A DNA stretch of 64,000 bases from Alphaproteobacteria bacterium. GTDB taxonomy: Bacteria > Pseudomonadota > Alphaproteobacteria > RF32 > CAG-239. Position 1 is the stretch's first letter; the number at the start of each line of letters is the position of its first letter. The translations under genes and the position numbers were made by a program. The stretch covers positions 72,736 to 136,735 of the forward strand of contig SUUJ01000001.1 of the NCBI GenBank assembly GCA_015062585.1. Direction: 5' to 3'. Below, piece by piece: positions 33,642 through 50,470 of this stretch. The notes under the pieces are model-generated. The model did no database searches, had not been told where the DNA came from, and was given only the letters and a program-made list of their open reading frames with translations.

Positions 33642-33677
33642 AAAAAAACGACCGAATTATTTTCGGCCGTTTTTTTT
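33642..33677. terminator. bidirectional terminator
   Basis: aaaaaacgaccgaa-ttatt-ttcggccgttttttt between convergent genes. Confidence 0.65.
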
Positions 33678-34106: not shown

Positions 34107-34108
34107 TT

Positions 34109-35320
34109 TTAACTCTTTAAGTCTACAAGCAAAGAAATCATTTCATCATTAACCGTCAAGCTTTGAGCGTTAAGGCTGTATGCTCGTTGAACCGTAATCA
34201 TTCTGGCAAATTCTTCTTCCAAGTTCACAGTTGACGATTCCAGAGCTTGCGGAACTATAATGCCGTCAGGGTCAATGTAATATTCATTGCCTACTTCTCC
34301 GGTAGTTTCAAACAATGTGGTATTATAAGGGGAAAGATTTTCCGGTGCGGTAAATCCTGCTATTGCAAGTTTGGCAATAGCCAACTCTGTGTCATTCGAA
34401 TATCTTGCGCTAAGTACTCCGTTGTCATTAAAGCCCATAGCTATTAAATGTCCTGATGAAGCGCCATTTTGTTGGATGTTGACTATTTCAGAGTTTATAC
34501 CCAATTGTGTCATTTCTGAAATATCGACAGTCACATTACTCGAACTTCCGTCATCCCAGTTCAATGTAACATCAAGATTTTCCGGTGTCATAATCTTTCC
34601 GTCGGTGTTAAATGTTACGGTCTTGTCATTACATACGGCTGTTCCGTCATCTAAGGTCAGTGAAAGATTCCACATATTGTGTTGTCCCTCAACACGATCA
34701 AATATCAAATTGAGGTTAGAACCGTCATAATTTTCAGAATAAATATGAACGCTGTATATACTTTTATCAACTTCTTTGGCCGGCAAATTTGCAATAATCG
34801 AAGCCTTTGTAGTGGGTCTCTGAGCAATAGTGTTCGGTGCATCAATCATAATATCTGACGGAGTGTTGGCAAATTCAAATTCACCGTTTATCGCCTTAAA
34901 TCCTTGAACAAACAAACCTCCTGAAGATACCAAATAAGCATTACCGTCTTGGGCTGATTTTTTAAAATCACCGGCACGAGTATAAAAATAATTACCATAA
35001 CCGTCATGCAACTTATAAAATGCATTAGAATTACCGTTTATAGCAACATCAAAAGTATTGCCGGTTGCTTTGGTCACACCTTCAATATCTATGTTTGTTC
35101 TGTTAAAAGAATCTACACCGGTAATATCTGCACGGGACGAGTGTAAACCGCTCTGTGATCCGACATTCATGCCCGACGAACCCAACAGTGTATAAAACAG
35201 GGTTTGTCGTTGTTTGTATCCGGTTGTGTTCATATTTACAATGTTTTGCGCGACGCTTTCTTGCGCTTTGCTCATTGCGTTCATTCCCGAAACCGAAGGT
35301 ATAAAACTTGCCAGCGTCAT
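34109..35320 (-). CDS. flgE: flagellar hook protein FlgE
   Basis: N-terminal 'SGMNAMSKAQESVAQNIVNMNTTGYK' and C-terminal 'ALESSTVNLEEEFARMITVQRAYSLNAQSLTVNDEM' flagellar rod/hook family motifs. 403 aa. Confidence 0.8.
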   Translation of the reverse strand: MTLASFIPSVSGMNAMSKAQESVAQNIVNMNTTGYKQRQTLFYTLLGSSGMNVGSQSGLHSSRADITGVDSFNRTNIDIEGVTKATGNTFDVAINGNSNAFYKLHDGYGNYFYTRAGDFKKSAQDGNAYLVSSGGLFVQGFKAINGEFEFANTPSDIMIDAPNTIAQRPTTKASIIANLPAKEVDKSIYSVHIYSENYDGSNLNLIFDRVEGQHNMWNLSLTLDDGTAVCNDKTVTFNTDGKIMTPENLDVTLNWDDGSSSNVTVDISEMTQLGINSEIVNIQQNGASSGHLIAMGFNDNGVLSARYSNDTELAIAKLAIAGFTAPENLSPYNTTLFETTGEVGNEYYIDPDGIIVPQALESSTVNLEEEFARMITVQRAYSLNAQSLTVNDEMISLLVDLKS

Positions 35321-35373
35321 TTTTTTGCCTCATATTTAAATCAACCCACAGAGTTATATGCAAAAAATATGCC

Positions 35374-35399
35374 AAAAAAACCGCCTGTTTATCAGGCGG
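35374..35399 (-). terminator. rho-independent terminator after the bactofilin gene
   Basis: ccgcctgataaacaggcgg hairpin followed by T7 on the minus strand. Confidence 0.6.
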
Positions 35400-35420
35400 C
35401 GGAATAAAGCTTTTATTATA

Positions 35421-35876
35421 TTAGGCTGATTTATTATTTTTTCTTTTATCAACTAACATCAAATCAGGCTTTGGCGCTTCGGCCGGAATAGGGTCACCTT
35501 GACGCATGCAATGACCATCAATATAAGCGCCTGGCTCAATTGCAATAGTATTATGAATAGCATCACCGACAAGTTTGGCTGATTTTGCTACAAACAGGTT
35601 GTCAACCAAAGCTTTTCCTTTCAAGGAACCGTATAATTGCAGATTATTTGTGCTAACTGCACCGAAGACACTGCCTTTTATACCGATAATAAGTTCATCA
35701 CAAGATACATCTCCTTCAACACTTCCGTCAATGTGAATAATGCCATCACTAAAAATATTACCGATTACTTTGGTGTTTTCACTCACAATGCTGGGAACCG
35801 GAGCTCCGGTAGTGCTCCTGCTTAAACGACGGGCAAGTTTAATATAGATAAGTCTTTTAAGTTTTTTTACAAACAT
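35421..35876 (-). CDS. bactofilin (CcmA-like polymer-forming cytoskeletal protein)
   Basis: Beta-helical repeat pattern 'IIHIDGSVEGDVSCDELIIGIKGSVFGAVSTNNLQLYGSLKGKA' typical of DUF583/bactofilin. Confidence 0.7.
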   Translation of the reverse strand: MFVKKLKRLIYIKLARRLSRSTTGAPVPSIVSENTKVIGNIFSDGIIHIDGSVEGDVSCDELIIGIKGSVFGAVSTNNLQLYGSLKGKALVDNLFVAKSAKLVGDAIHNTIAIEPGAYIDGHCMRQGDPIPAEAPKPDLMLVDKRKNNKSA

Positions 35877-35890: not shown

Positions 35891-37087
35891 TTATAGTTTA
35901 ATTTGCATAAATGGCATCGGATCCACAGGATGTCCTCGGTACAATATTTCATAGTGTAGGTGAGGGCCGGTAGAACGACCTGTATTACCGACCTCGCCGA
36001 TATCATCACCGGCTTCCAGATAATCACCTTTTTTAACATAAATAACATGCATATGAGCATATTTTGTTGAAAAACCGTTTCCGTGATCGATTTCAACCAA
36101 ATTTCCATATCCTTTATTCGAAATAAGGGTGCGAGTGACTCTGCCTTTTGCCTGAACTTTTATCTTGTTTCCGGTTCGTGAGGCAAGGTCAACACCTTTA
36201 TGACCGGCTTTTTTACTATTGAACGGATCATCTCTTACACCAAATTTTGAGCTGACCCAATAGCTCCATATCGGTTTGCCGAAAGGAACAGTTTTAGATA
36301 CTTCGCGATAATACTCCAAGTCGTCAACAGCTTTATATATGCTGCTTATTTTATTTATAATAGCTTTATCGCGTAAATCAGACATTGAATCCGGAATATA
36401 GTTACCACCTTTAGAATCTCGTTTTTTCGAGTTTGCCAACGGATTAAAGTAAAGGCCTTTCCTCTGAAGAGAGCCATTAGCCTTTGAAAAAGCGCTTTTT
36501 AATTTGTTCACTTCTTTAGCAACAATGGTTTCAACTTTGTTAAATACCTCAATTTCGGCCTTTTTAATATTGTAAACAGCCACTTCAAGCTCTTTTAACT
36601 GGTCTTTCAAGGCATCGCGTTCGGCAGCAGCCAAATCTCTTTGCAAAACCAATTCGTTAATATCAGCTCTATCGTTAATTTTTTTGTTATCTGTTATATT
36701 TTTGTCATGAGTAATTTGTTTTAGCTTATTTTCGACTTTTTGTGCCTTGGTCTTATCCATAGAGGTCAAAACTTCATCAATATTTTTTTGAATAGCCACA
36801 AAATCACTCATCAAGTCTTCGTAAGCGTCACGAGTTTGCAAAAGCTCGATATCTTTGCCTAAAATGATTTTACCGGATTTGTTATACATGTGATAGGAAT
36901 AAAAAGACCAAAAAGACAGCAAAAGCACAAACATCAATATCAAAAATTGTGTTTTTGATGAAAATTTGAATACCATAGCCTTGCCGGAACCTCTGAAGAT
37001 TATTTCTTTTTCAGAGAAAAAAGGCTTTTTTTCGGTATAATGCGGCGAATATTTGCGCTTTAGTTTAATTTTGTTCCTATATTTCAT
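35891..37087 (-). CDS. M23 peptidase with N-terminal TM and periplasmic coiled coil (EnvC/Csd1-like)
   Basis: 'GHKGVDLASRTGNKIKVQAKGRV' and 'GNTGRSTGPHLHYEI' motifs. Coiled-coil middle region. Confidence 0.75.
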   Translation of the reverse strand: MKYRNKIKLKRKYSPHYTEKKPFFSEKEIIFRGSGKAMVFKFSSKTQFLILMFVLLLSFWSFYSYHMYNKSGKIILGKDIELLQTRDAYEDLMSDFVAIQKNIDEVLTSMDKTKAQKVENKLKQITHDKNITDNKKINDRADINELVLQRDLAAAERDALKDQLKELEVAVYNIKKAEIEVFNKVETIVAKEVNKLKSAFSKANGSLQRKGLYFNPLANSKKRDSKGGNYIPDSMSDLRDKAIINKISSIYKAVDDLEYYREVSKTVPFGKPIWSYWVSSKFGVRDDPFNSKKAGHKGVDLASRTGNKIKVQAKGRVTRTLISNKGYGNLVEIDHGNGFSTKYAHMHVIYVKKGDYLEAGDDIGEVGNTGRSTGPHLHYEILYRGHPVDPMPFMQIKL

Positions 37088-37306
37088 ACAATAGAACCGT
37101 TTGTTGTTACTACCTAAAAAGCTATATCAAAAAAAATACAAAAAATAAACTTATTTTTAAAAAGTTATCCAAAAGGGGATTTAAAATTAAGCTTAAACAA
37201 TAAGTTAGCGTTGTGGTTATATTGTTATTTTTTGCCGGAGTCAACAAAATTTTGTAGTATGAAGGTCTTTATACCGATATTTTCACTGTTTTATAAGGAC
37301 TTTAAT

Positions 37307-37894
37307 ATGATTTACGGATATTGCAGAATAAGTACAACTCATCAGCAAGTTTGCAATCAAAGTCATGAAATTCAAGCATTTGCTGATAAAAAAGGAATAA
37401 AAATTGACCAATGGATTGAAGAAATAATTTCTTCCAGAGAAGCTTTAGCCAATCGCAAACTTGGAAAAATATTAAAAAAATTAAGAAGGGGCGATATTTT
37501 GATTGCTACCGAGCTTTCGCGTTTGGGAAGAAATTTGCTTGAGGTAATGGGGATATTACAACAATGTCTTGAAAAAGATTGTCAAATATGGACCTTGAAG
37601 GAAAATTATCGACTGGGAGCAGATATTCAATCAAAAGTTTTGGCTTTTGCTTTTGGTTTGGCTGGTGAAATAGAGCGCCAATTGATATCCGAGCGCACCA
37701 AAAACTCGCTCCAAAGATTAAAAGATGAGGGCAAACACCTGGGAAGACCTTATGGTAAAACCTACAAAAAGCTAGAAAAAAAACACAGCGAGATAAAAAA
37801 ATTATTGAATAATAATGTTTCAAAGGCTGAAATTGCCAGGCTTATGAATTGCACCTGGCAAACTCTGCATAGGTATGTGAAAAAGGAGTTATGA
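37307..37894 (+). CDS. serine recombinase (resolvase/DNA-invertase family)
   Basis: 'MIYGYCRISTTHQQ' N-terminal catalytic-Ser motif, ~196 aa, C-terminal HTH 'SKAEIARLMNCTWQTLHRYV'. ORF-track N-terminal extension rejected. Confidence 0.75.
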   Translation: MIYGYCRISTTHQQVCNQSHEIQAFADKKGIKIDQWIEEIISSREALANRKLGKILKKLRRGDILIATELSRLGRNLLEVMGILQQCLEKDCQIWTLKENYRLGADIQSKVLAFAFGLAGEIERQLISERTKNSLQRLKDEGKHLGRPYGKTYKKLEKKHSEIKKLLNNNVSKAEIARLMNCTWQTLHRYVKKEL

Positions 37895-37919: not shown

Positions 37920-39791
37920 TTAATTAAAATTATGTTTAGTTTTTCTTCTCCAATATTTTCGGCTGATGTTATAAAATAATTTAAATATTTTCTTTAATAT
38001 TGAACTTTTAATAATCCTATATTGAAAATTGGATAATACATTATATTTTTTACACATCCTTAAAAAATCATTGAAAGAAATATCTAAGCATCCGACCCAA
38101 TTATATATTCCTCGTGCGGCACAATACATATTATAAGTTTTGTGTTTTGTAATTTTTCCTTTTTGATGATGTAGTAAATTCATTAATTGTTCGATTTTGG
38201 GATGCGTTGAAATATCATTTGAATCTGATAAAGTGTGCTGACGATATCTAAGTCCGCATCCTCTAATGATAATACTGTCACCCATAGAACTGATATCTAA
38301 AAGAAACGGTAAGTCAAATACTTTTCCAAATAGTTCAGGTTTGTAGTTACATTTGGTATAGGCGCTGGTTTTATAGATCATTGCTGCAAAACACCATCTC
38401 TGAATTGAATGCGCAAAATTAGCACTATTCGTTGCGTTCCACAGATAGTATGATTTGTTTAAGCTAGGCCAATTATTGTTATCAGGATTATACATAACAT
38501 CAAATGAACAACTGGCCATGACAGCATTAGGGTGTTTGTTAAATAATTTCATAGCTGTTTCAATAAACTGAGGATGAACGACATCATCATCATGAAATAC
38601 CGCCGTATATTCATTAGATGCTAAGATCTGGGTTTTTTGAAAATTTTTAGGATTTCCAATGTTTGTATCATTTTTGATATGTACTATATTTCTATCGGTA
38701 TATTCCTTTTGTATCATATTTATAACAGCATCTGTTTCATCTGTACTGGCGTTGTCTAAAATTTTAATAATAAATCCACTTGCTGTTTGTTTACACAAGG
38801 ATTCTAACATTGTTTTCAGATAGTTAGCCCTATTATAAGTTAGAACAAAAACATCTAAGTTAGGATAATTATTTGAGTTGTTAGATACAGAGTTTTTTAT
38901 ATGTTGTTTTTTCATAACGGACCTTATAATTGTAGTATAAAATTTTATGTTTTTATATAAATAAGGAAACCATAAATAAAGCAAATTTAGTTTATTTTTT
39001 ATTTTATTAGGACATATCAAATTTATAGGAACATACTTAACAAAAATATTAATTAACAAATTAATTTGTTTTTTAGTAATTCCAAATTCAGATGATTTTA
39101 TTAAAGTTTTCAGATGATCCGTATATATTGAAGGCCCTTTTGAATAATTAAGCCAAGTTTGTTCACCTAAATGTATTGTTACAATCGGTTCTTTATCACA
39201 AAATGTATAATATTTATGGCCTTTCGACAAACAGTAAAGAGCTAATAATAGGTGTAACCATTCTGAAGAGTAGTTTAGTTGCAAGAATTTTTTAGCATAA
39301 TCAGCCTTTACAACGATATTTGAACAACACCAAAAATGATATCCGCACATTGATAGAAACGCTGTAACATCATTTGACTCGGCTTCTTTTTCGATTTCCG
39401 TTCTTTGAATATATTTTTCATTTTGCAAAAAATTGTTCGTTAAATTTATTAGTGAATATGAAGTATCAGCTTTTATCAATGTGATTATTTTTTTTAATCC
39501 GTTTTCGCAATAAAAATCATCATCTCCAAGAAAATGTATGTATTTTCCTTTGGCTAGTTCACAGCATTTCAATATGTTTCCACTATATCTTATGATTTTA
39601 GGATGTTTTCTTATATATTCATTGACAATACTCTTTGTATTATCAGTAGAACAATTATCACTAATAACAATCTCAACACCGCTTATTTTATCCTTGGCGA
39701 TTTGTTGTAAAATGTTGTCGATATTATGTTTTATATATTTTTCACCATTATATGTTGGAATACATATTGATAAATAGATACATTTGTCCAT
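37920..39791 (-). CDS. two-domain family-2 glycosyltransferase
   Basis: 'LSICIPTYNGEKYI..ISDNCSTDNT' and second 'VFVLTYNRANYL..LDNASTDETD' GT2 signatures. Confidence 0.75.
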   Translation of the reverse strand: MDKCIYLSICIPTYNGEKYIKHNIDNILQQIAKDKISGVEIVISDNCSTDNTKSIVNEYIRKHPKIIRYSGNILKCCELAKGKYIHFLGDDDFYCENGLKKIITLIKADTSYSLINLTNNFLQNEKYIQRTEIEKEAESNDVTAFLSMCGYHFWCCSNIVVKADYAKKFLQLNYSSEWLHLLLALYCLSKGHKYYTFCDKEPIVTIHLGEQTWLNYSKGPSIYTDHLKTLIKSSEFGITKKQINLLINIFVKYVPINLICPNKIKNKLNLLYLWFPYLYKNIKFYTTIIRSVMKKQHIKNSVSNNSNNYPNLDVFVLTYNRANYLKTMLESLCKQTASGFIIKILDNASTDETDAVINMIQKEYTDRNIVHIKNDTNIGNPKNFQKTQILASNEYTAVFHDDDVVHPQFIETAMKLFNKHPNAVMASCSFDVMYNPDNNNWPSLNKSYYLWNATNSANFAHSIQRWCFAAMIYKTSAYTKCNYKPELFGKVFDLPFLLDISSMGDSIIIRGCGLRYRQHTLSDSNDISTHPKIEQLMNLLHHQKGKITKHKTYNMYCAARGIYNWVGCLDISFNDFLRMCKKYNVLSNFQYRIIKSSILKKIFKLFYNISRKYWRRKTKHNFN

Positions 39792-39802: not shown

Positions 39803-40855
39803 CTATGATATATGATATTTATTGTAATATTTTTTTAGTTTGCAATCAAATTTTTCTTTGTATTTTGTTGAAGAAATTTTTAATAATAATTTTAGACACT
39901 TAACCTTAAATTTTATAAGACTGAATTTAAGGTAAAAAGCAAGCAAGTATTTAATAATAATTTTTTTATATTTTGTTCTCATATTACAGTAAAAATCCAT
40001 GATATTATAAAAATTATTATGTATGAATGATAGATTTATATATTGCTTTATAACACTATCTATATCCCGTTTTCCGTTTCTCCAATCTATATATTCAATT
40101 AAAATATCCATGGTTTGATACTTTAGATTCGTATCATTCAAATCGGATATAGCAATTGCAAAGCCACCCTCAAAAGTCATATTTACAAATCTGCTGCTGC
40201 AAAATTTTTTATCATAACCCCTTAACCAACTTACATCTTCAGCTGTTTTGTTTTCATAAACTCCATGTTTAACAATTTGTTTATCCACGACATATAAGGT
40301 TCCATGGTTATTTATAAAATTTACCAAAGGAATAATATGGGGAAACATACAGTACACATTATCATATATTGTTTTAATAACAGTATCATTTAATAGGTCT
40401 TTAGAATAAATTACCGCACTTACAAAAGCAGATTGAGTTAATTGTTTTGATATATTATATTTGAATTTTTCCGGTAAATCCATTCTTGACACAATTATGG
40501 CTTTTTCATTTGCTAAAATTGCTTGTTCAACTTCAGACCAATTACTCCAGTCATAAGTATCATCATCTGCGACAATCCACAGATAGTCTTTTGTATTATA
40601 CTCAAAGGCCTTTGCTATGTTTGCATTTGCTCCGACATTATAGTTGTTTTTCTTGTATGTAATATTTTTATGCTGTTTCTGAAAGTGTTTCACAACAGAA
40701 TATGTATCATCATTACTGCAATTATCAAGAATCATTATATCATAATCTCTAACAGGTGATGTTTCACTTAAAAATATATCCAAGGTTCTCTGCAGATATT
40801 TTTTTCTATTAAATGTAATTATTATAATTTGTAACTTATTTTTTGCTGAAATCAT
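39803..40855 (-). CDS. family-2 glycosyltransferase
   Basis: 'IIIITFNRKKYL..LDNCSNDDT'. Start trimmed to the internal Met (MISAKNK) to avoid an 80-nt overlap. Confidence 0.65.
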   Translation of the reverse strand: MISAKNKLQIIIITFNRKKYLQRTLDIFLSETSPVRDYDIMILDNCSNDDTYSVVKHFQKQHKNITYKKNNYNVGANANIAKAFEYNTKDYLWIVADDDTYDWSNWSEVEQAILANEKAIIVSRMDLPEKFKYNISKQLTQSAFVSAVIYSKDLLNDTVIKTIYDNVYCMFPHIIPLVNFINNHGTLYVVDKQIVKHGVYENKTAEDVSWLRGYDKKFCSSRFVNMTFEGGFAIAISDLNDTNLKYQTMDILIEYIDWRNGKRDIDSVIKQYINLSFIHNNFYNIMDFYCNMRTKYKKIIIKYLLAFYLKFSLIKFKVKCLKLLLKISSTKYKEKFDCKLKKYYNKYHIS

Positions 40856-41690
40856 TGCTTCTTTCCTTAAGCATGTTTTTGATACCATCGTGATAGGGAG
40901 TAAAGTTAAATTCATTAATAATACTTTTTAGTAGAGTATTATCCGCCGTATATTCATTGTTCATACCATCTTGCTTAAATAATATAGAAAAATTACTATT
41001 GTTAACCTCATTAGCTATTTCAGCTAATCTTTTAATCGTTATGTCGTCGGTTTGTGTAACATTAATAAATTTATATTTAGGAAAATTTTTAATAAAATAT
41101 TCAACAATTTTACAAAGATCATCAATATAAATAAAACTAAATTTTACATTTTGATTAAGTTCTATATTCTTTTTGTTTATAATACTATTGATAATACAGC
41201 TTGTTACTCTGGTTGGATTTTCTCCTATTCCATAAACTCCAAACAGGCGAAGATTTAATATATTTTTGCTATTAGTAATCATTTTAGATATAACATATTT
41301 AGAATAGCCATATGGATCTTTAGGAACAGATTTGCCAAAATCTTCTTCTTTGACATTTGTTATATTTGTGCTTTTATCATACTCCGCTCCGGAACCAAGA
41401 ATAATCATTTTGCAGCTATCAGAAGTGTGTTCTGCCAAATTGTTAAACATTTCAATATTTGGTCTGGCTACATCATCATTTGTTGCACCAGGAGTTATTC
41501 TAACGCCCATAGCAGCGCAATGAATAATAAAATCTATTTTGTTTTTATCAAAATAATTAGCGACTTCTTGTTTATTCAATAGGTCCAATTCTGTTATCGA
41601 AGGAGTAAACAAGGTATAATTATCAAGTAAATAACTCTTTATGTGAGAGCCAATAAAACCATCAGCACCTGAAATGAAAATGTTGGTCAT
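40836..41690 (-). CDS. NAD-dependent sugar epimerase/reductase (YerF-like candidate)
   Basis: 'IFISGADGFIGSHIKSYL' Rossmann motif. 284 aa. Adjacent to the TPP enzyme and ddh genes. Confidence 0.6.
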   Translation of the reverse strand: MTNIFISGADGFIGSHIKSYLLDNYTLFTPSITELDLLNKQEVANYFDKNKIDFIIHCAAMGVRITPGATNDDVARPNIEMFNNLAEHTSDSCKMIILGSGAEYDKSTNITNVKEEDFGKSVPKDPYGYSKYVISKMITNSKNILNLRLFGVYGIGENPTRVTSCIINSIINKKNIELNQNVKFSFIYIDDLCKIVEYFIKNFPKYKFINVTQTDDITIKRLAEIANEVNNSNFSILFKQDGMNNEYTADNTLLKSIINEFNFTPYHDGIKNMLKERSNDFSKK

Positions 41691-43399
41691 TATAGTTCTT
41701 CCTTTTTTATTTGCTCTAATTCTTCATCAGAAATTAAAGGATGCATTTTATCTATAGTATTTCCAAACAGAACCTTAGGGGTAATTTGTGTACTCTGTTC
41801 AAATATAATATTTATCAATACATGATCGTTTGATTCTAGAAAATCATTTATCATATCATCTGTGAGGTCTTCAGCCCTGACTGTTATTCCATTAATTTTA
41901 TATGCATTGGCAACTAAAGAAAAATCAGGAGCTGAATAATCATGTACAGTCGATGCGTTTCTACCTTCAAAATATAAATCTTGAAATTGTCTAACCATAC
42001 CTAGACTAAAGTTATTCATAATCACTATTTTGATAGGTAAGTTTCTTCTTTTAATTATTTCTAACTCTTGAATATTCATTTGGAAACCGCCGTCTCCTGA
42101 TATTACAATACTTCGAGCTCCTGATATACTTGCGCCAATGGCTGCCGGTAGGGCAAATCCCATGCATCCCAGTCCACCAGATGATAAGTGCCGTGAATGT
42201 TCTTTTACAACTAAAGATTGTCCGACCCACATCTGATGTTGTCCGACATCTGAGCAAACAACATCATCATTATTCAACTTTTCGCTGATCTTCTTAATAA
42301 TTATGTTGGGTAAATTCTTGTTTCCATCCAAATCCTCTGTTGATGGATATTTTTTCTTTAACTGAAGAACTTTACTTTGCCAATTTGTAATATTTATATT
42401 CAATTCTTTTTGACATAATTGCTGGAAAAAACTATCTATGGATAAGTTAACGGTTATTTTATTCAGATTACTACACTTCAGTTGACCTTCATCTATATCA
42501 ACATGTATAATTTTTTTATTGTTAAAAATAGATGTATTAGCTCCTATTTGCCTGATATCCAACCTTGATCCTAAAACTAATATTGTATCAGCTATAGATA
42601 ACGCAATGTTAGCATATCTGTTTCCATAAGTGCCAATCATTCCCAAATTGTATATATACTCAGAAGGTACACAATCCAGACCTAATAAAGACTCTACAAC
42701 AGGAATTTGTGTTTTGTCCAAAAAATCTCTTAAATATTGTTGAGCCGAAGATAAACGCACGCCATTGCCAACAAGAATAATAGGAGATTTTGAAGAATTT
42801 ATAATATCAATAATGTTTTTTAGATCTATTTCATTTTGGGGAACGCAAGGAGCATAAAAAGACCTTGCTTTAGAAAAATCAAAATCAATTCGCTGAATAT
42901 CCATAGGAATATCAATTAAAACAGGACCTTTTCTACCATCCTGAGCAATAAAAAACGCTTTTTCAAGTTCATATCGTAAATTTTTAATATCATCAATAAG
43001 GACGGCATATTTTGTTATTGGTTTTGCCATAGAAACAATATCTGTTTCTTGGAATCCTGTTTGTCGTATTTCAGGAAACTTTTTATATTCAAAAGTATTA
43101 ACTTGCCCTGTTATAAATACTACAGGAGTAGAATCAAAATAGCAACTTGCCATAGGGGTTAATAAATTTGTTGCTCCAGGTCCTGATGTTGCTATTGCAA
43201 CAGATACTTTTCCTGTTACTCGGGAATATCCTTCTGCTGCAAAACCAGCCCCTTGTTCTGTGATGGTATTAACCATTTCAATATAATCTGATTGATAGAT
43301 GCTATCTGTGAGATGAGCAACCATTCCTCCAATATATCCAAAAATTTTAGAAATATTTTTCTGTATAAAAAAATCTACTATAAAGTCAGAAGCTTTCAT
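41690..43399 (-). CDS. thiamine-pyrophosphate enzyme of the acetolactate-synthase family (YerE-like branched-sugar synthase candidate)
   Basis: ALS-like N-terminal 'GYIGGMVAHL..EQGAGFAAEGYSRVTGKVSVAIATSGPGATNL'. 569 aa. Placed between ddhC and a reductase. Confidence 0.6.
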   Translation of the reverse strand: MKASDFIVDFFIQKNISKIFGYIGGMVAHLTDSIYQSDYIEMVNTITEQGAGFAAEGYSRVTGKVSVAIATSGPGATNLLTPMASCYFDSTPVVFITGQVNTFEYKKFPEIRQTGFQETDIVSMAKPITKYAVLIDDIKNLRYELEKAFFIAQDGRKGPVLIDIPMDIQRIDFDFSKARSFYAPCVPQNEIDLKNIIDIINSSKSPIILVGNGVRLSSAQQYLRDFLDKTQIPVVESLLGLDCVPSEYIYNLGMIGTYGNRYANIALSIADTILVLGSRLDIRQIGANTSIFNNKKIIHVDIDEGQLKCSNLNKITVNLSIDSFFQQLCQKELNINITNWQSKVLQLKKKYPSTEDLDGNKNLPNIIIKKISEKLNNDDVVCSDVGQHQMWVGQSLVVKEHSRHLSSGGLGCMGFALPAAIGASISGARSIVISGDGGFQMNIQELEIIKRRNLPIKIVIMNNFSLGMVRQFQDLYFEGRNASTVHDYSAPDFSLVANAYKINGITVRAEDLTDDMINDFLESNDHVLINIIFEQSTQITPKVLFGNTIDKMHPLISDEELEQIKKEEL

Positions 43400-44760
43400 T
43401 ATACAATACTCCGGATGAAGTCGTGAATAACCTTAGATGTCTTTTTCATATCTTCCGGAGTATTGTTCTGAGCAACACCTACCCAAAATGTGTGATTCAT
43501 TATAAATTCTGTTCCGGGTAAACTAGCATAATGTATTTCATGTAATTCTTTTGCATTCAATAACTCTGAACTACCAATCCGTAAATTGATATCATTTTCC
43601 ACAATCATTGGTTGACGCAAAATGTTACCCGCAAACAATTGACGTGTTCCAATGCCATTAGCTTCTAGATACTTTACCAAGTCTTGCTTAGTAAATGGAG
43701 CATTCTCCTTTACTGAAATTAAAAAACCAAACCATGATGGAGTACAATTTTCTGTAATTTTTGGTAAAATTAAATAATCTTCTAAATCAGATAGTTCTCG
43801 CAACAGTGTTTCTGCATTTTCTTTACGCATAGCTAAAAATTTATCTAATTTTTTAAGTTGGGCTAAAGCAATGGCTGCTTGCCAATCAGTAATCTTTAAG
43901 TTATAACCGATGTGTGAATATGTATATTTATGATCATAACCTTTCGGTAAATTGCCTAACTTTAAGTTAAATCGATTATGACAAGTATCATCACAACCAG
44001 GTTTACACCAGCAATCACGTCCCCAATCTCTAAAAGACATAATGATGCGGTGTAATATAGGATCATTAGTTACGACAGCGCCACCTTCACCCATTGTAAT
44101 ATGATGCGCAGGATAAAAACTATATGTTCCTATATGACCAATTGTTCCGGCATATTTACCATTCCATTTTGCACCCAATGCATCACAACTATCTTCAATT
44201 ACCCAAAGATTATATTTTTGAGCTAAATCCATAATTTTATCCATATCATACATATTACCCAATGTATGAGCTAAGAAAATTGCTCTGGTTTTAGGTGAAA
44301 TAGCTTCTTCAATTTTGTTTACATCAATATTATATGTTCCAACCTCACAATCAACAAATACGGGAATCATACCATTTTGAATAATAGGATTCACTGTCGT
44401 TGGAAATCCTGCAGCCACGGCAATAACTTCATCACCTTTCTTTAATGCTCTGTCTTGTAGCTTGTGAGATGTCAAAGCTGAAAATGCTAACAAGTTGGCT
44501 GACGATCCAGAGTTTGTTGTAAGTGCATATTTTACACCTAATTTTTGTGCAAAGTCTTTTTCAAATTCATCATTAAAACGACCGGAGGTCAACCACATAT
44601 CCATAGAAGCCTCAAACATATTTATAAGTTCTTCGCATCCAATATTTTTACCCGATGCTGGAATATATTTTTTTTCTCTTTTTGCTTTCTCTTCTTCTAA
44701 ACAATTAGCGTAATCTTTAGCTAAATCCAAAATTTGTTGTTTGATGCTTTCTTTATTCAT
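43399..44760 (-). CDS. ddhC: CDP-6-deoxy-D-xylo-4-hexulose-3-dehydrase (E1)
   Basis: DegT-family fold with 'SFYPAHHITMGEGG', i.e. His in place of the PLP-binding Lys, the hallmark of the E1 dehydrase. 453 aa. Confidence 0.75.
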   Translation of the reverse strand: MNKESIKQQILDLAKDYANCLEEEKAKREKKYIPASGKNIGCEELINMFEASMDMWLTSGRFNDEFEKDFAQKLGVKYALTTNSGSSANLLAFSALTSHKLQDRALKKGDEVIAVAAGFPTTVNPIIQNGMIPVFVDCEVGTYNIDVNKIEEAISPKTRAIFLAHTLGNMYDMDKIMDLAQKYNLWVIEDSCDALGAKWNGKYAGTIGHIGTYSFYPAHHITMGEGGAVVTNDPILHRIIMSFRDWGRDCWCKPGCDDTCHNRFNLKLGNLPKGYDHKYTYSHIGYNLKITDWQAAIALAQLKKLDKFLAMRKENAETLLRELSDLEDYLILPKITENCTPSWFGFLISVKENAPFTKQDLVKYLEANGIGTRQLFAGNILRQPMIVENDINLRIGSSELLNAKELHEIHYASLPGTEFIMNHTFWVGVAQNNTPEDMKKTSKVIHDFIRSIV

Positions 44761-44761
44761 A

Positions 44762-45853
44762 TTATAAACTCCAATCTATATTTTTTGCTTGTGCGTTTGC
44801 TACAAATTCATTGATTTGTTTTTTTGTAAAATCAACCATATCTGTATCGTTTTTATAAAAAGCTTTGTACCATTCTGTTGTTTTAATAATTGCTTCTTCT
44901 GCACTATAAACAGGTTTCACACCCAGTTCTTTTTCTGCTTTTTCAATGTTAAGTTGAAGTAGGTTAGCCTCATGCAATCCATCAGCTTTGCCGACTTCAA
45001 CTTTCCCATTTCCCCAAACCTCAGAAACTTTTTGTGCGACCTCACAAACTTTTACATCTTTATTCATTTCCGGTCCAAAATTATACCCCTGAGCATATTT
45101 AGAGCCTTCTTCTAATAATTTTTGTCCTAAACGCAGATATCCGGCTAATGGCTCTAATACATGTTGCCAAGGACGAGTTGCTAAAGGATTTCTTATAAAG
45201 ACAGTTTCATTTTGTTGAAATGCTTTAATACAATCTGGTATAAGCCTGTCTTTTGCCCAATCACCACCACCAATAACATTACCCGCACGACCGGATGCCA
45301 AAGCATAAGGTTTACCATCAGTCAAGAATGAACGACGATATGAAGATGTTAGAATTTCAGAACATCCCTTGGATGAGGAATAAATATCATATCCGCCCAT
45401 TGGCTCGTCTTCTTTATATCCTTCTTTTTTCTCTTTGTTTTCATAGCATTTATCTGTGGTTACATTCACAAAGGCCTTAACAGATGGTGTTTTACGTGCG
45501 GCTTCTAAAACTTTTAGTGTGCCAATAATATTAGTTTCATATGTTTCCACAGGTTCAGAATATGAAAGACGAACAATCGGCTGCGCGGCTAAATGGAAAA
45601 CGATGTCAGGATTATGCTTGGCAAAATATGTTTCTAACTTTTGGTTTTCTCGAATATCCGCAATTAAACTATCATCTAAAGTATTTTCTAAATTTAACAC
45701 TTTAAACAAATGTTTTTCAGTATCAGGCAAAAGAGAATATCCGACAACTTTAGCACCCATCTGCTTCAACCAAAATGCAAGCCAACTTCCTTTAAAACCC
45801 GCATGACCGGTAATTAATACGGTTTTATTTGAATAAATATTATTAAATAGCAT
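44762..45853 (-). CDS. ddhB: CDP-glucose 4,6-dehydratase
   Basis: 'VLITGHAGFKGSWLAFWL' N-terminus. 363 aa. Between ddhA and ddhC. Confidence 0.75.
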   Translation of the reverse strand: MLFNNIYSNKTVLITGHAGFKGSWLAFWLKQMGAKVVGYSLLPDTEKHLFKVLNLENTLDDSLIADIRENQKLETYFAKHNPDIVFHLAAQPIVRLSYSEPVETYETNIIGTLKVLEAARKTPSVKAFVNVTTDKCYENKEKKEGYKEDEPMGGYDIYSSSKGCSEILTSSYRRSFLTDGKPYALASGRAGNVIGGGDWAKDRLIPDCIKAFQQNETVFIRNPLATRPWQHVLEPLAGYLRLGQKLLEEGSKYAQGYNFGPEMNKDVKVCEVAQKVSEVWGNGKVEVGKADGLHEANLLQLNIEKAEKELGVKPVYSAEEAIIKTTEWYKAFYKNDTDMVDFTKKQINEFVANAQAKNIDWSL

Positions 45854-45854
45854 G

Positions 45855-46637
45855 TTAATTATTCCAAATCTTCCAAGGGGCTCTATTTTCAGCCCATAAT
45901 TGATTTAAATCTTGCTTATCTTTCAACATGTCCATCGGATGCCAAAAGCCTACATGTTTATATGCATTCAATTGTTTATCCCTAGATAAAGATAATAAGG
46001 CACTTTTTTCAAACATTAACTCATCTGAATTTTCTGGAAGATAATTAAATATCGCAGGTTCACAAATCATAAATCCGGCATTGATCCAAGATCCGCTTTC
46101 CTTAGGTTTTTCCGCAAAATTTGATATTGTTCCATCACCTTCAATTCCTAATGACCCATATTTACCTTCAGGTTGATATGCTGTTAATGTGCATATTTTT
46201 CCGGATTTCTTATGAGCTTCTAATAAGTCGGGGATAGATATATCTGCTACACCATCACCATATGTCAACATAAAAGGTTCATTACCAATATATTTTTGAG
46301 CCTTTTTAATTCGTCCTGCAGTTAGAGTGTTTCTTCCGGTATATAGCAAAGTAACTTTAAATGGTTCACAATGATTTTGGTGCACTGTTATATCATTTGT
46401 TGATAAATCAACAGTTACATCGGAGTTATTCATATAGTAATTAACAAAGTAATCTTTTATTACCTCTTGCTTATAGCCGGTTAAAATAACAAAATCATTA
46501 TAACCATAGTGAGAATATATTTTCATTATATGCCATAAAATAGGATATCCTCCAATTCCGACCATAGGTTTAGGTTTAATTGAAGTTTCTTCTCCTAATC
46601 TTGTTCCTAGGCCACCGGCCAATATTACTACTTTCAT
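45855..46637 (-). CDS. ddhA: glucose-1-phosphate cytidylyltransferase
   Basis: 'MKVVILAGGLGTRL..SIKPKPMV.IGG.PILWHIM' motif. 260 aa. Confidence 0.8.
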   Translation of the reverse strand: MKVVILAGGLGTRLGEETSIKPKPMVGIGGYPILWHIMKIYSHYGYNDFVILTGYKQEVIKDYFVNYYMNNSDVTVDLSTNDITVHQNHCEPFKVTLLYTGRNTLTAGRIKKAQKYIGNEPFMLTYGDGVADISIPDLLEAHKKSGKICTLTAYQPEGKYGSLGIEGDGTISNFAEKPKESGSWINAGFMICEPAIFNYLPENSDELMFEKSALLSLSRDKQLNAYKHVGFWHPMDMLKDKQDLNQLWAENRAPWKIWNN

Positions 46638-47473
46638 TTTTTATTTCTCCTCAATTTAATTTGCAATTTTCCGATATGATAAATCTTATGAGACGATGTT
46701 TTTTCCTTATATAAAAACGGCGGTTTCTTTCCACAAAATGCGTCAAACCTACGACGCATACTTTTTGCCAAAAAGTTATAATTTTGCTTGTACATATCCG
46801 TGTGAAATGAAAAAATTTTATTGAACGAAAAGGTATACTTTTCAAGACTATCACTCAGCTTGGTAATCATCGATACTTCATGTTGCCGGTAATAAAACAA
46901 AACCTCCGGAATTCTATACACTCCAACGCCGTTTTCAATCAGAGAAAGCCAAAATTCATAATCTTCTAAGCCATAAATCATTTCTTTCTTGTAACCACCG
47001 ACTTTTTCCCAATCTGATTTTCTAAACAATGCCGTACAAAAGATACGATTACTATTTAAGATATCAGGAAACTTATATTCTTTTAGGGGCCACAGTCCTT
47101 GTTTGGCTCCAAAAAACTCTGCCAAACAGTAAACTATTCCTATTTTATCATTATTCTCAATAACATTAACGGCCTTTTCAATATAGGTAGGCCCAATTTT
47201 ATCATCAGCATCAAGAGGCAAGATATACTTACCAGTTGCTGCTGCGATACCGGTATTGCGAGCTTCGGCCAATCCCTCATTTTGTTTGTTGATTACTTTT
47301 GTCTTAGGTTTGGAATAATTATTTAGTAAAGTATTAGTTGCTTCATCCGTTGAACCGTCATTAACAATAATTATTTCAATATCATCATAACTCTGTGCCA
47401 AGCATGAATTAACAGCCTCATCAACATATTGTCCGTGATTGTAACAAGGAATTACTATACTAACTCTAGGCAT
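46634..47473 (-). CDS. family-2 glycosyltransferase
   Basis: 'VSIVIPCYNHGQYV..DIEIIIVNDGSTD' GT2 signature. Confidence 0.7.
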   Translation of the reverse strand: MPRVSIVIPCYNHGQYVDEAVNSCLAQSYDDIEIIIVNDGSTDEATNTLLNNYSKPKTKVINKQNEGLAEARNTGIAAATGKYILPLDADDKIGPTYIEKAVNVIENNDKIGIVYCLAEFFGAKQGLWPLKEYKFPDILNSNRIFCTALFRKSDWEKVGGYKKEMIYGLEDYEFWLSLIENGVGVYRIPEVLFYYRQHEVSMITKLSDSLEKYTFSFNKIFSFHTDMYKQNYNFLAKSMRRRFDAFCGKKPPFLYKEKTSSHKIYHIGKLQIKLRRNKK

Positions 47474-47476
47474 ATA

Positions 47477-48334
47477 TTACTTCTCCTGCAATTTAATTAC
47501 AGATTTGCTTGCAAACAGCGGCAATTTCTTAAAAAGGTATACTTTTGTGAGATTTGCTTGTTTTTTGATTGTTATAAAAGGAATAAAACCAAACAGTCTT
47601 ATTCTTGTGGTATGCTTGGCTTTGAATAAAAATTCTTCATACAATTGCGGGTTGTCATTTTTTACAAAAGACCAAATACTCAAAGTTGCCTGACGCATTT
47701 TATCACTTTGTCGGTGTGAGGTATTTTGTCCGTGATCTCTGTAATGAAATAAAATCTCGTTCAAATTGTGAAAATTGGTAAAAGGTATCAGTCTGCACCA
47801 CAAAGCGTAGTCTTCAGAGGGTGAAAATTCTTCTTCATAACGGATGTTATTTTCAGTCAAAACTGATTTTCTAATCATGGCGGCCGAGTGGTTTATACTG
47901 CAAACCCTCATTAAAGCCAGTTTTATATCGTGGTTATTGCTCGGATTTCTGGATGTTTTGCCTCTTATCATGGTTTTGACCTTGCAAGAAACAACCCCGA
48001 CATCCGAATGTTCGTCTAAATAAGCTACTTGCTTTTCCAGTCTGTCGGGTAAAGATATGTCATCATGGTCAAAAACTGCCAGATATTCGCCACTTGCCAT
48101 ATCTATAAGCTTATTTCTACTTGGCGTAATTCCTAGATTTTGCTCATTTTTAGAATATTTTATGCGTTTGTCTTTGTATGATTTTACAATTTCTTCTCGG
48201 TCATCATCAGGACAATCGTCAAGAATCAAAAATTCAAAGTCCGAAAAGGTCTGATCGAGGATAGATTCTATAGCCTCTCTTAAATACTTTTCATTAGTTT
48301 TATATACAGGCATTAACACCGATACTTTGGGCAT
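47477..48334 (-). CDS. family-2 glycosyltransferase, copy 1 of an inverted duplicate pair
   Basis: 'VSVLMPVYKTNEKYL..FEFLILDDCPDDD'. ~95 % aa identity to 48560-49417. Confidence 0.75.
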   Translation of the reverse strand: MPKVSVLMPVYKTNEKYLREAIESILDQTFSDFEFLILDDCPDDDREEIVKSYKDKRIKYSKNEQNLGITPSRNKLIDMASGEYLAVFDHDDISLPDRLEKQVAYLDEHSDVGVVSCKVKTMIRGKTSRNPSNNHDIKLALMRVCSINHSAAMIRKSVLTENNIRYEEEFSPSEDYALWCRLIPFTNFHNLNEILFHYRDHGQNTSHRQSDKMRQATLSIWSFVKNDNPQLYEEFLFKAKHTTRIRLFGFIPFITIKKQANLTKVYLFKKLPLFASKSVIKLQEK

Positions 48335-48385
48335 TGCTAATCCTTTTCACTTTGAATTGTCCTAATTTTATGGAACACGACAGCT

Positions 48386-48544
48386 TATCCATAAACCACC
48401 GTTTACGGATAGTTATTCAAGAGGCTTTTGGTAAAGTTAAAAAAAATAAGGAAAAAGCTTGTATTTTCTATTTTTTTCCTTGCATTATTGTTTTTATTGG
48501 AGTAAGACTTTCACTATGTAATTTAAACGGTGGTTTATGGATAA
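48386..48544. promoter_or_regulatory. candidate invertible promoter segment: 117 bp bounded by perfect 21-bp inverted repeats
   Basis: ttatccataaaccaccgttta at 48386-48406 and its exact reverse complement at 48524-48544. Enclosed AT-rich segment contains TTGCAT/TTGTAT -35-like hexamers. Sits between two divergent operons. Confidence 0.5.
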
Positions 48545-48559
48545 ATAGAAGGAGTCAAA

Positions 48560-49417
48560 ATGCCTAGGGTCTCGGTATTGATGCCTGTTTACAAGACAAA
48601 AGAGAAATATTTGCGTGAAGCAATTGAAAGTATCTTAAACCAAACTTTTACAGATTTTGAGTTTCTTATTTTAGATGATTGTCCTGATGATGACCGAGAA
48701 AAAATTGTAAAATCATACAAAGACAAACGCATAAAATATTCTAAAAATGAACAAAATCTAGGAATTGCGCCAAGTAGAAATAAGCTTATAGATATGGCGA
48801 GTGGCGAATATCTTGCTGTTTTTGACCATGATGACATATCTTTACCCGACAGACTGGAAAAGCAAGTAGCTTATTTAGATGAACATCAGGATGTCGGTGT
48901 AGTTAGTTGTAAAATAAAAAATATGATTAGAGGTACAACCTCTAGAAATCCGAGCAATAACCACGATATAAAGCTGGCTTTAATGAGGGTTTGCAGTATA
49001 AACCACTCTTCCGCCATGATTAGAAAATCAGTTTTGACTGAAAATAACATCCGTTATGAAGAAGAATTTTCGCCTTCTGAAGACTATGCTTTGTGGTGCA
49101 GACTGATACCTTTTACCAATTTTCACAATTTGAACGAGATTTTGTTTCATTACAGAGATCACGGACAAAATACTTCACACCGACAAAGTGATAAAATGCA
49201 TCAGGCCACTTTGAGTATTTGGTCTTTTGTAAAAAATGATAATCCGCAATTGTATGAAGAATTTTTGCTCAAAGCCAAGCATACCACAAGAATAAGACTG
49301 TTTGGTTTTATTCCTTTTATAACAATCAAAAAACAAGCAAATCTCACAAAAGTATACCTTTTTGAGAAATTGCCGCTGTTTGCAAGCAAATCTGTAATTA
49401 AATTGCAGGAGAAATAA
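48560..49417 (+). CDS. family-2 glycosyltransferase, copy 2 of the inverted duplicate pair
   Basis: Near-identical to copy 1. Strong RBS aaggagtcaaaATG. Confidence 0.75.
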   Translation: MPRVSVLMPVYKTKEKYLREAIESILNQTFTDFEFLILDDCPDDDREKIVKSYKDKRIKYSKNEQNLGIAPSRNKLIDMASGEYLAVFDHDDISLPDRLEKQVAYLDEHQDVGVVSCKIKNMIRGTTSRNPSNNHDIKLALMRVCSINHSSAMIRKSVLTENNIRYEEEFSPSEDYALWCRLIPFTNFHNLNEILFHYRDHGQNTSHRQSDKMHQATLSIWSFVKNDNPQLYEEFLLKAKHTTRIRLFGFIPFITIKKQANLTKVYLFEKLPLFASKSVIKLQEK

Positions 49418-49420
49418 TAT

Positions 49421-50470
49421 ATGCCTAGAGTTTCGGTATTGATGCCTGTTCACAAGACAAAAGAGAAATATTTGCCCTTTATATCTTGTAAATTTAAACG
49501 AAAAATTACTACACTATTAGATTTAAAAAAACTCAGTGTAATTATAACTGTATATAATGAAAAACCCGAATATATCGAACGAGCAATAACATCTCTAAAT
49601 AATCAAAATTTTCAAAATCTTGAAATAATAGTTGTTAATGATGGTTCTAAAAATGAAGATACCATAAGGTTTTTAAATAATCTTAAACAAGATAACCTAA
49701 AAATAATTAACAAAGAAAACGGAGGACCGGGAAGTGCCAGAAATTTAGGATTACAACACACTTCTGGCGATGTCGTTGGATTTCTTGATGCTGATGATTG
49801 GGTAGAAAAAGATTTTTATTCCGAACTAATGTACAATTTAATAAGGTATAACGCAGATGTTGCATGTGGCGTTTTGATATGTAATGGCAAAAGTTATGAT
49901 AAATTTCCGCGATATATTGCCTCTACTGTTCAAGAAAAATTAAAATATATAAATAATGGTTCGGTTTGCTCAAAAATATTCAAAAAAGAATTGTTCAATG
50001 ACATAAAATTTTCCGAAGCCAAAATTTATTACGAAGATAATCCGGTTTTATTAAAGCTTTTGTTGCAAGCTGATAAAGTGTCTTTTAATCCAAAGGCTGA
50101 ATATATTTACTTTACCAATGATACATCCATAACCAGAAACAAAGATGAAAGTAAAGAACAAAAAAGAATAGATGATAGTGTGCTTATTTTAGAACAAATT
50201 AAAAAATGGGCTGATTCATATGATAAAAAAACATCTGATTTGATAATGCTGACGGTAGGTCAGATACTATTTCGTGCTTGGCAATATACTAAAAACGAGA
50301 ATTATCGCAAAAAAATAGATAAAATTTTTACAAAAGAACAAATGGCAATTCTTATAAAACCGCAATTAACATTTGCCCAAAAAATTTTCTCACTAAAAAA
50401 ATCAAAAGATAAATCTTATAAAATCATCACCTTTCTCGGATTTCAAATCAAATGGAGGCTCAAAAAATGA
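49421..50470 (+). CDS. family-2 glycosyltransferase with chimeric N-terminus
   Basis: First 18 aa (MPRVSVLMPVHKTKEKYL) and 55 nt are a third copy of the duplicated gene's 5' end. Then a distinct GT2 domain 'LSVIITVYNEKPEYI..IIVVNDGS'. Confidence 0.65.
   Translation: MPRVSVLMPVHKTKEKYLPFISCKFKRKITTLLDLKKLSVIITVYNEKPEYIERAITSLNNQNFQNLEIIVVNDGSKNEDTIRFLNNLKQDNLKIINKENGGPGSARNLGLQHTSGDVVGFLDADDWVEKDFYSELMYNLIRYNADVACGVLICNGKSYDKFPRYIASTVQEKLKYINNGSVCSKIFKKELFNDIKFSEAKIYYEDNPVLLKLLLQADKVSFNPKAEYIYFTNDTSITRNKDESKEQKRIDDSVLILEQIKKWADSYDKKTSDLIMLTVGQILFRAWQYTKNENYRKKIDKIFTKEQMAILIKPQLTFAQKIFSLKKSKDKSYKIITFLGFQIKWRLKK

Follow-up and report, generated by a model that had tools for sequence, protein, structure and literature searches.

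Does a low-G+C alphaproteobacterium encode a pathway to a C4-branched 3,6-dideoxyhexose, and how closely would that pathway follow CDP-yersiniose synthesis of Yersinia? The question arises from a 64,000-nt stretch of contig SUUJ01000001.1 (assembly GCA_015062585.1; hereafter the window), in which five minus-strand open reading frames (ORFs) abut or overlap within 46637-40836, with start and stop codons overlapping or adjoining at every junction. Identical proteins are named 'MAG: Alphaproteobacteria bacterium' at NCBI (MAG, metagenome-assembled genome). The original prediction read these genes as ddhA, ddhB and ddhC followed by an acetolactate synthase (ALS)-like thiamine diphosphate (ThDP) enzyme and a short-chain dehydrogenase/reductase (SDR), which together would make a yersiniose-type sugar. 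Our analysis indicates that the cassette is an uncharacterised member of a known pathway type with a variant architecture, in which the E3 reductase gene is missing and the branch reductase is replaced. We hold with moderate confidence that it makes a CDP-linked C4-branched 3,6-dideoxyhexose of the yersiniose type, and with lower confidence that the product is specifically yersiniose A or B. The profile matches of the cassette genes are strong and far beyond chance, and a reading of the five genes as chance ORFs was rejected on these matches.

The first three genes were scored against the curated equivalog cut-offs of NCBIfam. The product of ddhA (45855..46637, minus strand, 260 aa), a glucose-1-phosphate cytidylyltransferase forming CDP-D-glucose, matched TIGR02623 at 358 bits (cut-off 300). 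That of ddhB (44762..45853, minus strand, 363 aa), a CDP-glucose 4,6-dehydratase forming CDP-4-keto-6-deoxy-D-glucose, matched TIGR02622 at 482 bits against 278, and that of ddhC (also RfbH or E1; 43399..44760, minus strand, 453 aa), a pyridoxamine phosphate (PMP)- and [2Fe-2S]-dependent CDP-4-keto-6-deoxyglucose 3-dehydrase, matched NF011936 at 667 bits against 423. DdhA is 48-50% identical to its Yersinia and Pseudomonas counterparts and 80% to the copy of Campylobacter lanienae; the corresponding values are 51-52% and 83% for DdhB, and DdhC is 54% identical to Yersinia DdhC and 77% to the C. lanienae protein. E1-type 3-dehydrases are defined by a histidine in place of the aminotransferase lysine and by a four-cysteine [2Fe-2S] motif (PMC8987622). 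Alignment of the E1 protein with Yersinia and Pseudomonas DdhC placed His219, within the motif SFYPAHHITMGEGG (residues 214-227), opposite Yersinia H220 at the aminotransferase lysine position, and Cys192, Cys250, Cys252 and Cys260 opposite C193, C251, C253 and C261, so that the C-X57-C-X-C-X7-C motif is present. The identities and coordinates first proposed for these three genes, including the histidine said to replace the pyridoxal phosphate-binding lysine of E1, are thus borne out.

The fourth gene (41690..43399, minus strand) encodes a 569-aa ThDP-dependent enzyme for which we predict acyl branching at C4 of a CDP-4-keto sugar. Its three ALS-type Pfam domains (PF02776, PF00205 and PF02775) all score above cut-off, the FAD-type central domain PF00205 at 106 bits. 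The ThDP motif GDG-X24-NN is kept (GDGG...NN at residues 435-463), as is the catalytic glutamate (Glu48 within TEQGAG), and the counterparts of the VGGG, MLGMHG and GVRFDDR motifs of acetohydroxyacid synthase (AHAS) have, as judged by alignment, the same form as in PpYerE. The protein scored under every ALS cut-off of NCBIfam: 487 against 538 for TIGR00118, 491 against 738 for NF006524, and far under in the remaining models. A Yersinia YerE orthologue likewise falls under all ALS equivalog cut-offs, and NCBIfam contains no YerE model. The best match in the PDB was 5ahk (2e-118), with plant, yeast and bacterial AHAS at 8e-95 or worse. We take 5ahk to be PpYerE of Pseudomonas protegens (Hampel et al. 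2018, cited in PMC12247030). In keeping with this, Val499 of its 20-residue-tagged chain corresponds to the published V479, and its closest relatives are Pseudomonas and Yersinia proteins in ddhD-ddhA-ddhB-ddhC-yerE-yerF clusters; the code 5AHK itself gave no literature match.

As the identity of the 569-aa enzyme to YerE (38-41% overall, 40% to PpYerE) is barely above that to AHAS (34-39%), we built a tree of 58 sequences over 548 columns, using neighbor joining (NJ) with Kimura distances as the only method, with 100 bootstrap replicates and rooting on E. coli PoxB and Gcl; YpYerE itself, ErwE and JanthE were left out. A scan of genome contigs with the 569-aa enzyme, which was dominated by the generic AHAS peptide DVGQHQMW and returned 78 AHAS loci and two YerE-like loci, served as the AHAS set. 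The window enzyme and its relatives formed a clade in 100% of bootstraps, as did the Pseudomonas and Yersinia YerE proteins, and the two clades joined with two intermediates (L001 and L002, both adjoining ddhC) in 100/100. The window clade was sister to the YerE clade in 72/100 and grouped with AHAS in 0/100. Members of the window subclade, at 51-69% identity, come from C. lanienae, Arcobacter, Sulfurovum, Sulfurospirillum, Seleniivibrio, Melainabacteria-type MAGs and many metagenomes. The phylogeny put forward as a check in the original prediction did not group the enzyme with ordinary acetolactate synthases, and the ThDP motif, catalytic glutamate and FAD-type central domain, whose loss would have counted against a YerE-type enzyme, appear from the sequence to be retained. 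The placement supports a YerE-type carboligase rather than IlvB, in a separate subclade of the YerE superclade, from which the donor acid and the product can be predicted only indirectly.

The alignment also revealed a 6-aa insertion, GQVNT[FYH]E[YL]K..[IV]RQxGFQE, in 36/36 YerE-type sequences and in 0/20 sequences of AHAS, Gcl and PoxB. It lies at residues 101-112 of the 569-aa enzyme. In addition, Phe471 sits at the position of the AHAS acceptor-specificity tryptophan (MVxQW), and IGGM replaces GYPGG. This signature (the insertion after GQV, RQxGFQE, Phe and IGGM) was derived in the present analysis and has no published definition. In AHAS, the loop borders the substrate-access channel, near the herbicide-resistance alanine of 'GTDAFQE'; given this location, the insertion plausibly reshapes the acceptor site.

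The start codon of the ThDP enzyme gene overlaps the ddhC stop codon, and the ddh-linked context is repeated in eight related loci. No ilvN or ilvH gene for a regulatory small subunit was found in the window. That top NCBIfam and Pfam scores come from ALS models, and that some databases label the enzyme or its relatives 'acetolactate synthase', would favour an ordinary biosynthetic acetolactate synthase (IlvB/G/I) lodged in a glycan locus. Missed cut-offs, the tree, the insertion with the Phe and IGGM replacements, and translational coupling to both ddhC and the SDR gene effectively refute that explanation, to which we assign next to no probability.

The fifth gene (40836..41690, minus strand) encodes an extended SDR of 284 aa (PF01370), predicted to reduce the branch carbonyl with NAD(P)H. 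It occupies the position of yerF, and the order of the five genes is that of ddhA-B-C-yerE-yerF in Yersinia aleksiciae and P. protegens. Its motifs GxxGxxG (8-14), Ser100 and YxxxK (127-131) are invariant among homologues. The protein showed no significant similarity to YerF (310 aa) in BLASTP, with E = 4.6e-4 over 60 aa for the Yersinia protein and 0.017 for that of Pseudomonas, and tblastn with YerF found no match in the window. Among solved structures it comes nearest to GDP-fucose synthase (3.5e-8) and RmlD, with overall values of 1e-8 to 1e-6, and none of these is near enough to fix its substrate. The YerE/YerF gene logic proposed for the cassette therefore stands as an analogy and fails as orthology.

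We scanned metagenome contigs with an alignment of this SDR and recovered three true relatives (L096-L098), the other matches being generic SDRs. The three are 36-39% identical to the window SDR, and all lie in ddh clusters. In L097, ddhA-ddhB is followed by a distant ALS-fold ThDP enzyme (31% identical, with a 9-residue insertion at the YerE-type loop), a HAD hydrolase and an HpcH/HpaI aldolase, which presumably make a longer donor, and then by the SDR gene. In L098, the SDR homologue follows a split transketolase. L096 carries the 36% homologue in a ddhABC cluster where a ThDP enzyme is not visible, the contig ending right after the SDR gene. SDR homologues also adjoin the YerE-like enzyme of the window clade in six loci. 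The SDR thus accompanies three unrelated types of ThDP enzyme that form C-C bonds, which argues that it acts on the branch carbonyl; that would be the sole carbonyl left, since C4 would already be a tertiary alcohol. From its position and co-occurrence, the SDR is probably the branch-carbonyl reductase, an analogue and not an orthologue of YerF.

The canonical CDP-yersiniose pathway includes ddhD, which encodes the E3 reductase of E1, and its absence was overlooked in the original prediction. Neither Pfam nor tblastn searches found ddhD/E3 (Fer2 + FAD_binding_6 + NAD_binding_1) in the 64-kb window, whereas in Yersinia aleksiciae (L090) and P. protegens (L091) ddhD lies directly upstream of ddhA. 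A flavin reductase-like ORF at 11750-12265 belongs to a different family and lies 30 kb away. Across the eight loci of the window clade (the window itself/L081, L085, L087, L088, L089, L179, L180 and L181), ddhD was present in 0/8, the window-type SDR in 6/8 and YerF in 0/8; the two loci of the YerE clade, L090 and L091, showed the opposite (2/2, 0/2 and 2/2, respectively). With ddhD and YerF absent from all eight, the lack of ddhD and the replaced SDR are traits of the cassette type and not accidents of one genome. E1 needs two electrons, and for the E1-type enzyme SpnQ these can come from general ferredoxin or flavodoxin reductases (PMC8987622). By analogy, a housekeeping ferredoxin or flavodoxin reductase pair would be the likely supply for the window E1; alternatively, ddhD may lie elsewhere in the genome.

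These assignments suggest the following route, which resembles the ddh/yer CDP-yersiniose pathway (named in PMC4509608 and PMC9306805). DdhA would form CDP-glucose and DdhB would convert it to CDP-4-keto-6-deoxyglucose, both steps being backed by equivalog matches. E1/DdhC would then take off the 3-OH by means of PMP and [2Fe-2S], with electrons from the housekeeping reductase pair. The YerE-like enzyme, to go by its family placement and context, would decarboxylate a 2-keto acid, most likely pyruvate, and add the acyl unit to the C4 ketone, giving a tertiary alcohol with an acetyl branch. The adjoining SDR would reduce the branch carbonyl to a 1-hydroxyethyl group with NAD(P)H, and a flanking GT2 glycosyltransferase would move the sugar into a surface glycan (O-antigen, capsule or glycoprotein). 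The predicted product is a CDP-linked 4-C-(1-hydroxyethyl)-3,6-dideoxyhexose. Pyruvate, with a two-carbon branch, is the economical and most likely prediction, because clusters with supposedly longer donors have an aldolase gene (ErwI/ErwJ in Pectobacterium atrosepticum, PMC9306805; also L097), while Pfam searches found no aldolase, dehydrogenase or other donor-supplying gene in either glycan operon of the window.

The same five genes occur in the same order in C. lanienae (L085), at 80/83/77/66/59% amino acid identity for DdhA, DdhB, DdhC, the ThDP enzyme and the SDR, and the five-gene cassette is found in one further genome. Over the eight cassettes, the ThDP-SDR pair is kept in six and ddhC also in six. 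Another alphaproteobacterial MAG (L087; GCA_017539865.1) has a reduced ddhA-ddhB-TPP-GT2 arrangement with a 54% relative of the ThDP enzyme and without E1 and SDR. The identity to the C. lanienae cassette is too high for vertical descent between phyla, and the alphaproteobacterial relative reaches only 54%; horizontal acquisition of the cassette is therefore probable. The only genera with reports of yersiniose are Yersinia, Burkholderia, Budvicia and Pseudomonas (PMC4753412). The view that the pathway is unusual in this lineage accordingly holds in that few genera are known to make the sugar, and has to be qualified by the 59-83% identical cassette of C. lanienae, which speaks for transfer and not for a trait of the lineage. 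C4-branching loci appear modular: apart from L087, L181 combines a cytidylyltransferase, the TPP enzyme and a dehydratase without ddhC, L098 uses a split transketolase, and L097 adds the hydrolase and aldolase.

Three other explanations start from the same genes and differ in the donor, in the acceptor or in the role of the SDR. A longer or functionalised 2-keto acid would give an erwiniose-like, caryophyllose-like or new branched sugar. ErwE and MMAR_2332 prefer hydroxy-keto acids of C4 or longer and JanthE is promiscuous (PMC12247030, PMC9306805), and the placement of the window enzyme in a separate subclade means that its donor is not transferable by homology; yet the window operons have no donor-making gene, unlike the erw cluster (PMC9306805) and L097, and pyruvate is the default donor in the nearest families. 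We regard a longer donor as unlikely. An acceptor that keeps its 3-OH would result if E1 were unserved without E3 or were bypassed, the enzyme then branching CDP-4-keto-6-deoxyglucose to yield a 4-C-branched 6-deoxyhexose. The consistent absence of ddhD from the window clade and its presence in both canonical clusters would fit, as would L087 and L181, where the window-clade enzyme accompanies ddhA (in L087 also ddhB) without ddhC. Against it stand an intact ddhC, well over its cut-off with the histidine and four cysteines kept, which persists in most cassettes and is thus likely to be functional, the SpnQ precedent for general ferredoxin/flavodoxin reductases (PMC8987622), and the possibility of a ddhD elsewhere in the genome; this outcome seems to us quite improbable.

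The SDR could also be a C4-ketoreductase or epimerase leading to an unbranched 3,6-dideoxyhexose of the abequose, paratose or ascarylose type, with the ThDP enzyme acting in parallel or being unrelated. Its nearest solved relatives, GDP-fucose synthase and RmlD, act as 4-keto-sugar reductases or epimerases; it is no YerF orthologue, and its L096 homologue stands in a ddhABC cluster where no ThDP enzyme can be seen. This explanation has to contend with the overlap of the SDR start with the ThDP stop codon, the pairing of the two genes in 6/8 cassettes, the homologues beside three unrelated ThDP enzymes and the end of the L096 contig directly after the SDR gene, and we give it little credence, slightly less than the 3-OH-retaining acceptor. 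A C4-branched 3,6-dideoxyhexose formed from pyruvate remains the product that we favour.

Several observations nevertheless weigh against that product. The identity of the ThDP enzyme to characterised YerE is barely above that to AHAS, and the sister relation of its subclade to YerE has an NJ bootstrap of only 72%. Three proteins predicted to be YerE-like, RhopE, SpirE and MygE, did not accept ketones in vitro (PMC12247030). The SDR is unrelated to YerF beyond the general fold, and the L096 cluster makes a C4-ketoreductase role possible. L087, having neither ddhC nor SDR, indicates that the ThDP clade can act on CDP-4-keto-6-deoxyglucose, and the acceptor would keep its 3-OH if no substitute reductase served E1. 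Finally, the 64-kb window yielded no recognisable genes for Wzx/Wzy, a polymerase or an ABC exporter.

The cassette is embedded in a minus-strand operon, with two GT2 genes upstream and two downstream (48334-46634 and 40915-37920). The upstream pair (46634..48334, minus strand; 279 and 285 aa, PF00535) are the first genes of this leftward operon and overlap ddhA by 4 nt. Directly downstream of the SDR gene lies a GT2 gene (39803..40915, minus strand; PF00535) of 370 aa by ORF and 350 aa in the JGI call, a candidate transferase for the branched sugar; a GT2 gene holds the same position in C. lanienae, but the two proteins are dissimilar by BLASTP. The operon ends with a two-domain GT2 of 623 aa (37920..39791, minus strand) containing two PF00535 stretches. 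Opposite to it runs a divergent plus-strand operon with more glycosyltransferases and sugar-modifying enzymes. The G+C content ranges from 0.27 to 0.40 along the window; the cassette has 0.33, and the housekeeping and prophage parts have 0.36-0.37.

The two glycan operons meet at a candidate invertible element (48385..48544), a perfect 21-nt inverted repeat around a 118-nt AT-rich core within a 225-nt spacer. Its arms, 48385-48405 and 48524-48544, read TTATCCATAAACCACCGTTTA and its complement. The first genes of the two operons encode 285-aa GT2 paralogues with 95% amino acid identity, and this divergent pair forms a 907-nt, 90% inverted repeat (47439-49455) at the heads of the opposed operons. 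A small serine recombinase of the invertase/resolvase type (37211..37894, plus strand; PF00239) adjoins the 3′ end of the cassette operon, 10.5 kb from the inverted repeat; its 227-aa ORF begins with TTG, the JGI call being 195 aa, and its best PDB matches are the Gin DNA invertase (1.4e-11), followed by Sin and gamma-delta resolvase. The recombinase possibly acts on the inverted repeats, or it may be left over from a mobile element that delivered the locus. We hypothesize that the element and the recombinase could constitute an invertible, or otherwise regulatory, switch between the two glycan operons. The flipped orientation would read left flank-IR-AATTACATAG... (IR, inverted repeat). It was not seen in four assemblies (the window and three others), in which the 118-nt core has one orientation; two contigs break at or near the inverted repeat. 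A scan of the operon for consensus promoters and terminators gave fewer promoter-like sites than shuffled sequence, and no consensus promoter in the core.

Combining these features, a broader proposal can be sketched: the cassette would represent a second, widely transferred type of C4-branching cassette, with a distinct YerE-like subclade, a non-YerF SDR and an E3-independent E1, which gives gut Alphaproteobacteria and Campylobacterota a branched dideoxy sugar (yersiniose, a new stereoisomer or an analogue) and whose expression is switched against the alternative glycan operon by the recombinase-driven element at 48385-48544. We offer this proposal tentatively and consider it, taken as a whole, doubtful.

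A 55-nt direct repeat (95%) was also noted at 48560-48614 and 49421-49475, with one copy at the 5′ end of each of two consecutive GT2 genes, and three glycosyltransferase genes, counting the minus-strand paralogue, are near-identical over their first 18 codons. The 55-nt repeat may serve as a recombination substrate for shuffling glycosyltransferases. Farther to the right, a UDP-glucose/GDP-mannose dehydrogenase-like ORF of ~250-287 aa (52867-53730, plus strand) overlaps the preceding GT1 gene by ~110 nt and has partial NAD-binding and central domains and no C-terminal domain; it may be truncated or degenerate. The rightward glycan operon has unusual tailoring functions in a 766-aa fusion of polysaccharide deacetylase/DUF2334, S-adenosylmethionine (SAM) methyltransferase and GT1 (55342-57642, plus strand), followed by a TupA-like ATP-grasp protein (58398-59480, plus strand).

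On the other side of the glycan locus, a minus-strand block at 33657-35876 encodes a GtrA-family membrane protein, the flagellar hook protein FlgE and a bactofilin. It lies between the glycan locus and a prophage and is flanked by M23 peptidases at 30763-32721 and 35891-37087. In C. lanienae (L085), a Maf-type flagellin glycosylation gene is found close to the homologous cassette. By analogy, a link of the cassette to flagellar glycosylation is conceivable. The prophage-like block (~14860-30300, plus strand) contains many ORFs without a Pfam match, together with an S24/LexA-type repressor (14862-15563, minus strand), a large terminase (16974-18299), two tail-collar-domain proteins (26475-27248 and 27623-29251) and a phage lysozyme (29811-30281); a tRNA-Asp gene (32820-32896) lies ~2.5 kb beyond it.

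If the predicted product is correct, C-branched dideoxy sugars would extend beyond Yersinia, Pseudomonas, Burkholderia and Budvicia, the Gamma- and Betaproteobacteria in which they have been documented chemically so far, and gut-associated Alphaproteobacteria as well as C. lanienae and its relatives would bear them on the surface. This would have a bearing on serotyping, on phage and immune recognition, and on the horizontal exchange of surface-antigen modules. The subclade would also be a source of candidate ketone-accepting ThDP carboligases, which are wanted as biocatalysts for chiral tertiary alcohols; the SDR is a candidate for the poorly defined branch ketoreductase step, and the cassettes of the window clade form a natural set of candidate E3-independent E1 dehydrases. 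The finding extends a known pathway type and does not overturn current understanding; a specialist may find it useful rather than surprising.

How, then, does the cassette compare with systems already described? YerE-like enzymes are a recognised subclass, with YpYerE, PpYerE, ErwE, MMAR_2332 and JanthE characterised and >200 predicted in silico on the likeness of their gene clusters, one of them from the alphaproteobacterium R. palustris (PMC12247030). Our search of the literature accessible to it found no description of an E3-less variant with a replaced reductase. The closest likeness is to the CDP-yersiniose A pathway of Yersinia pseudotuberculosis O:6 and Pseudomonas, with which the window shares the gene order ddhA-B-C-ThDP-SDR, orthologous DdhA, DdhB and DdhC (48-54%), the ThDP superclade with its loop insertion and Trp-to-Phe change, and the predicted acyl branching of a CDP-4-keto-3,6-dideoxyhexose at C4 followed by reduction of the branch. 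It differs in that ddhD/E3 is missing, the ThDP enzyme forms its own subclade at only 38-41% identity, the reductase belongs to another SDR subfamily (284 versus 310 aa), and the host is a low-G+C alphaproteobacterial MAG, the nearest copies of the cassette being found in Campylobacterota. ErwE/ErwF of Pectobacterium atrosepticum, MMAR_2332 of Mycobacterium marinum and JanthE likewise pair an ALS-fold ThDP gene with genes for CDP-4-keto-3,6-dideoxyglucose and then with an NAD(P)H reductase in surface-glycan loci (PMC9306805, PMC12247030). Compared from the papers rather than from sequences, the ErwE-type systems differ from the window in having donor-making genes (the erw aldolase and dehydrogenase) and in preferring longer keto acids.

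With the AHAS large subunit (IlvB/IlvG/IlvI), the 569-aa enzyme shares the three-domain fold, the ThDP motif, the catalytic glutamate, the FAD-type middle domain and 34-39% identity, but it scores under the equivalog cut-offs, has no regulatory subunit, carries the 6-aa insertion and Phe for Trp, stands in another context and falls in a separate clade (100/100). The E1 protein resembles SpnQ, the TDP-sugar 3-dehydrase of spinosyn synthesis, in being an E1-type enzyme without a partner reductase gene (PMC8987622); SpnQ belongs to an actinomycete antibiotic pathway and works on TDP-2,6-dideoxy sugars, whereas the window E1 is a CDP-type RfbH equivalog. The split transketolases AviB1/AviB2 and Pau11/Pau12 also attach acetyl or hydroxyethyl branches at C4 of deoxysugars ahead of a stereospecific ketoreduction, although they belong to another ThDP superfamily and work on TDP-linked sugars in Gram-positive antibiotic pathways. 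The branch ketoreductase of paulomycin, Pau7, is an aldo-keto reductase (PMC4753412). The reductase family varies between systems, and the replacement of YerF by another SDR in the window parallels this variation.

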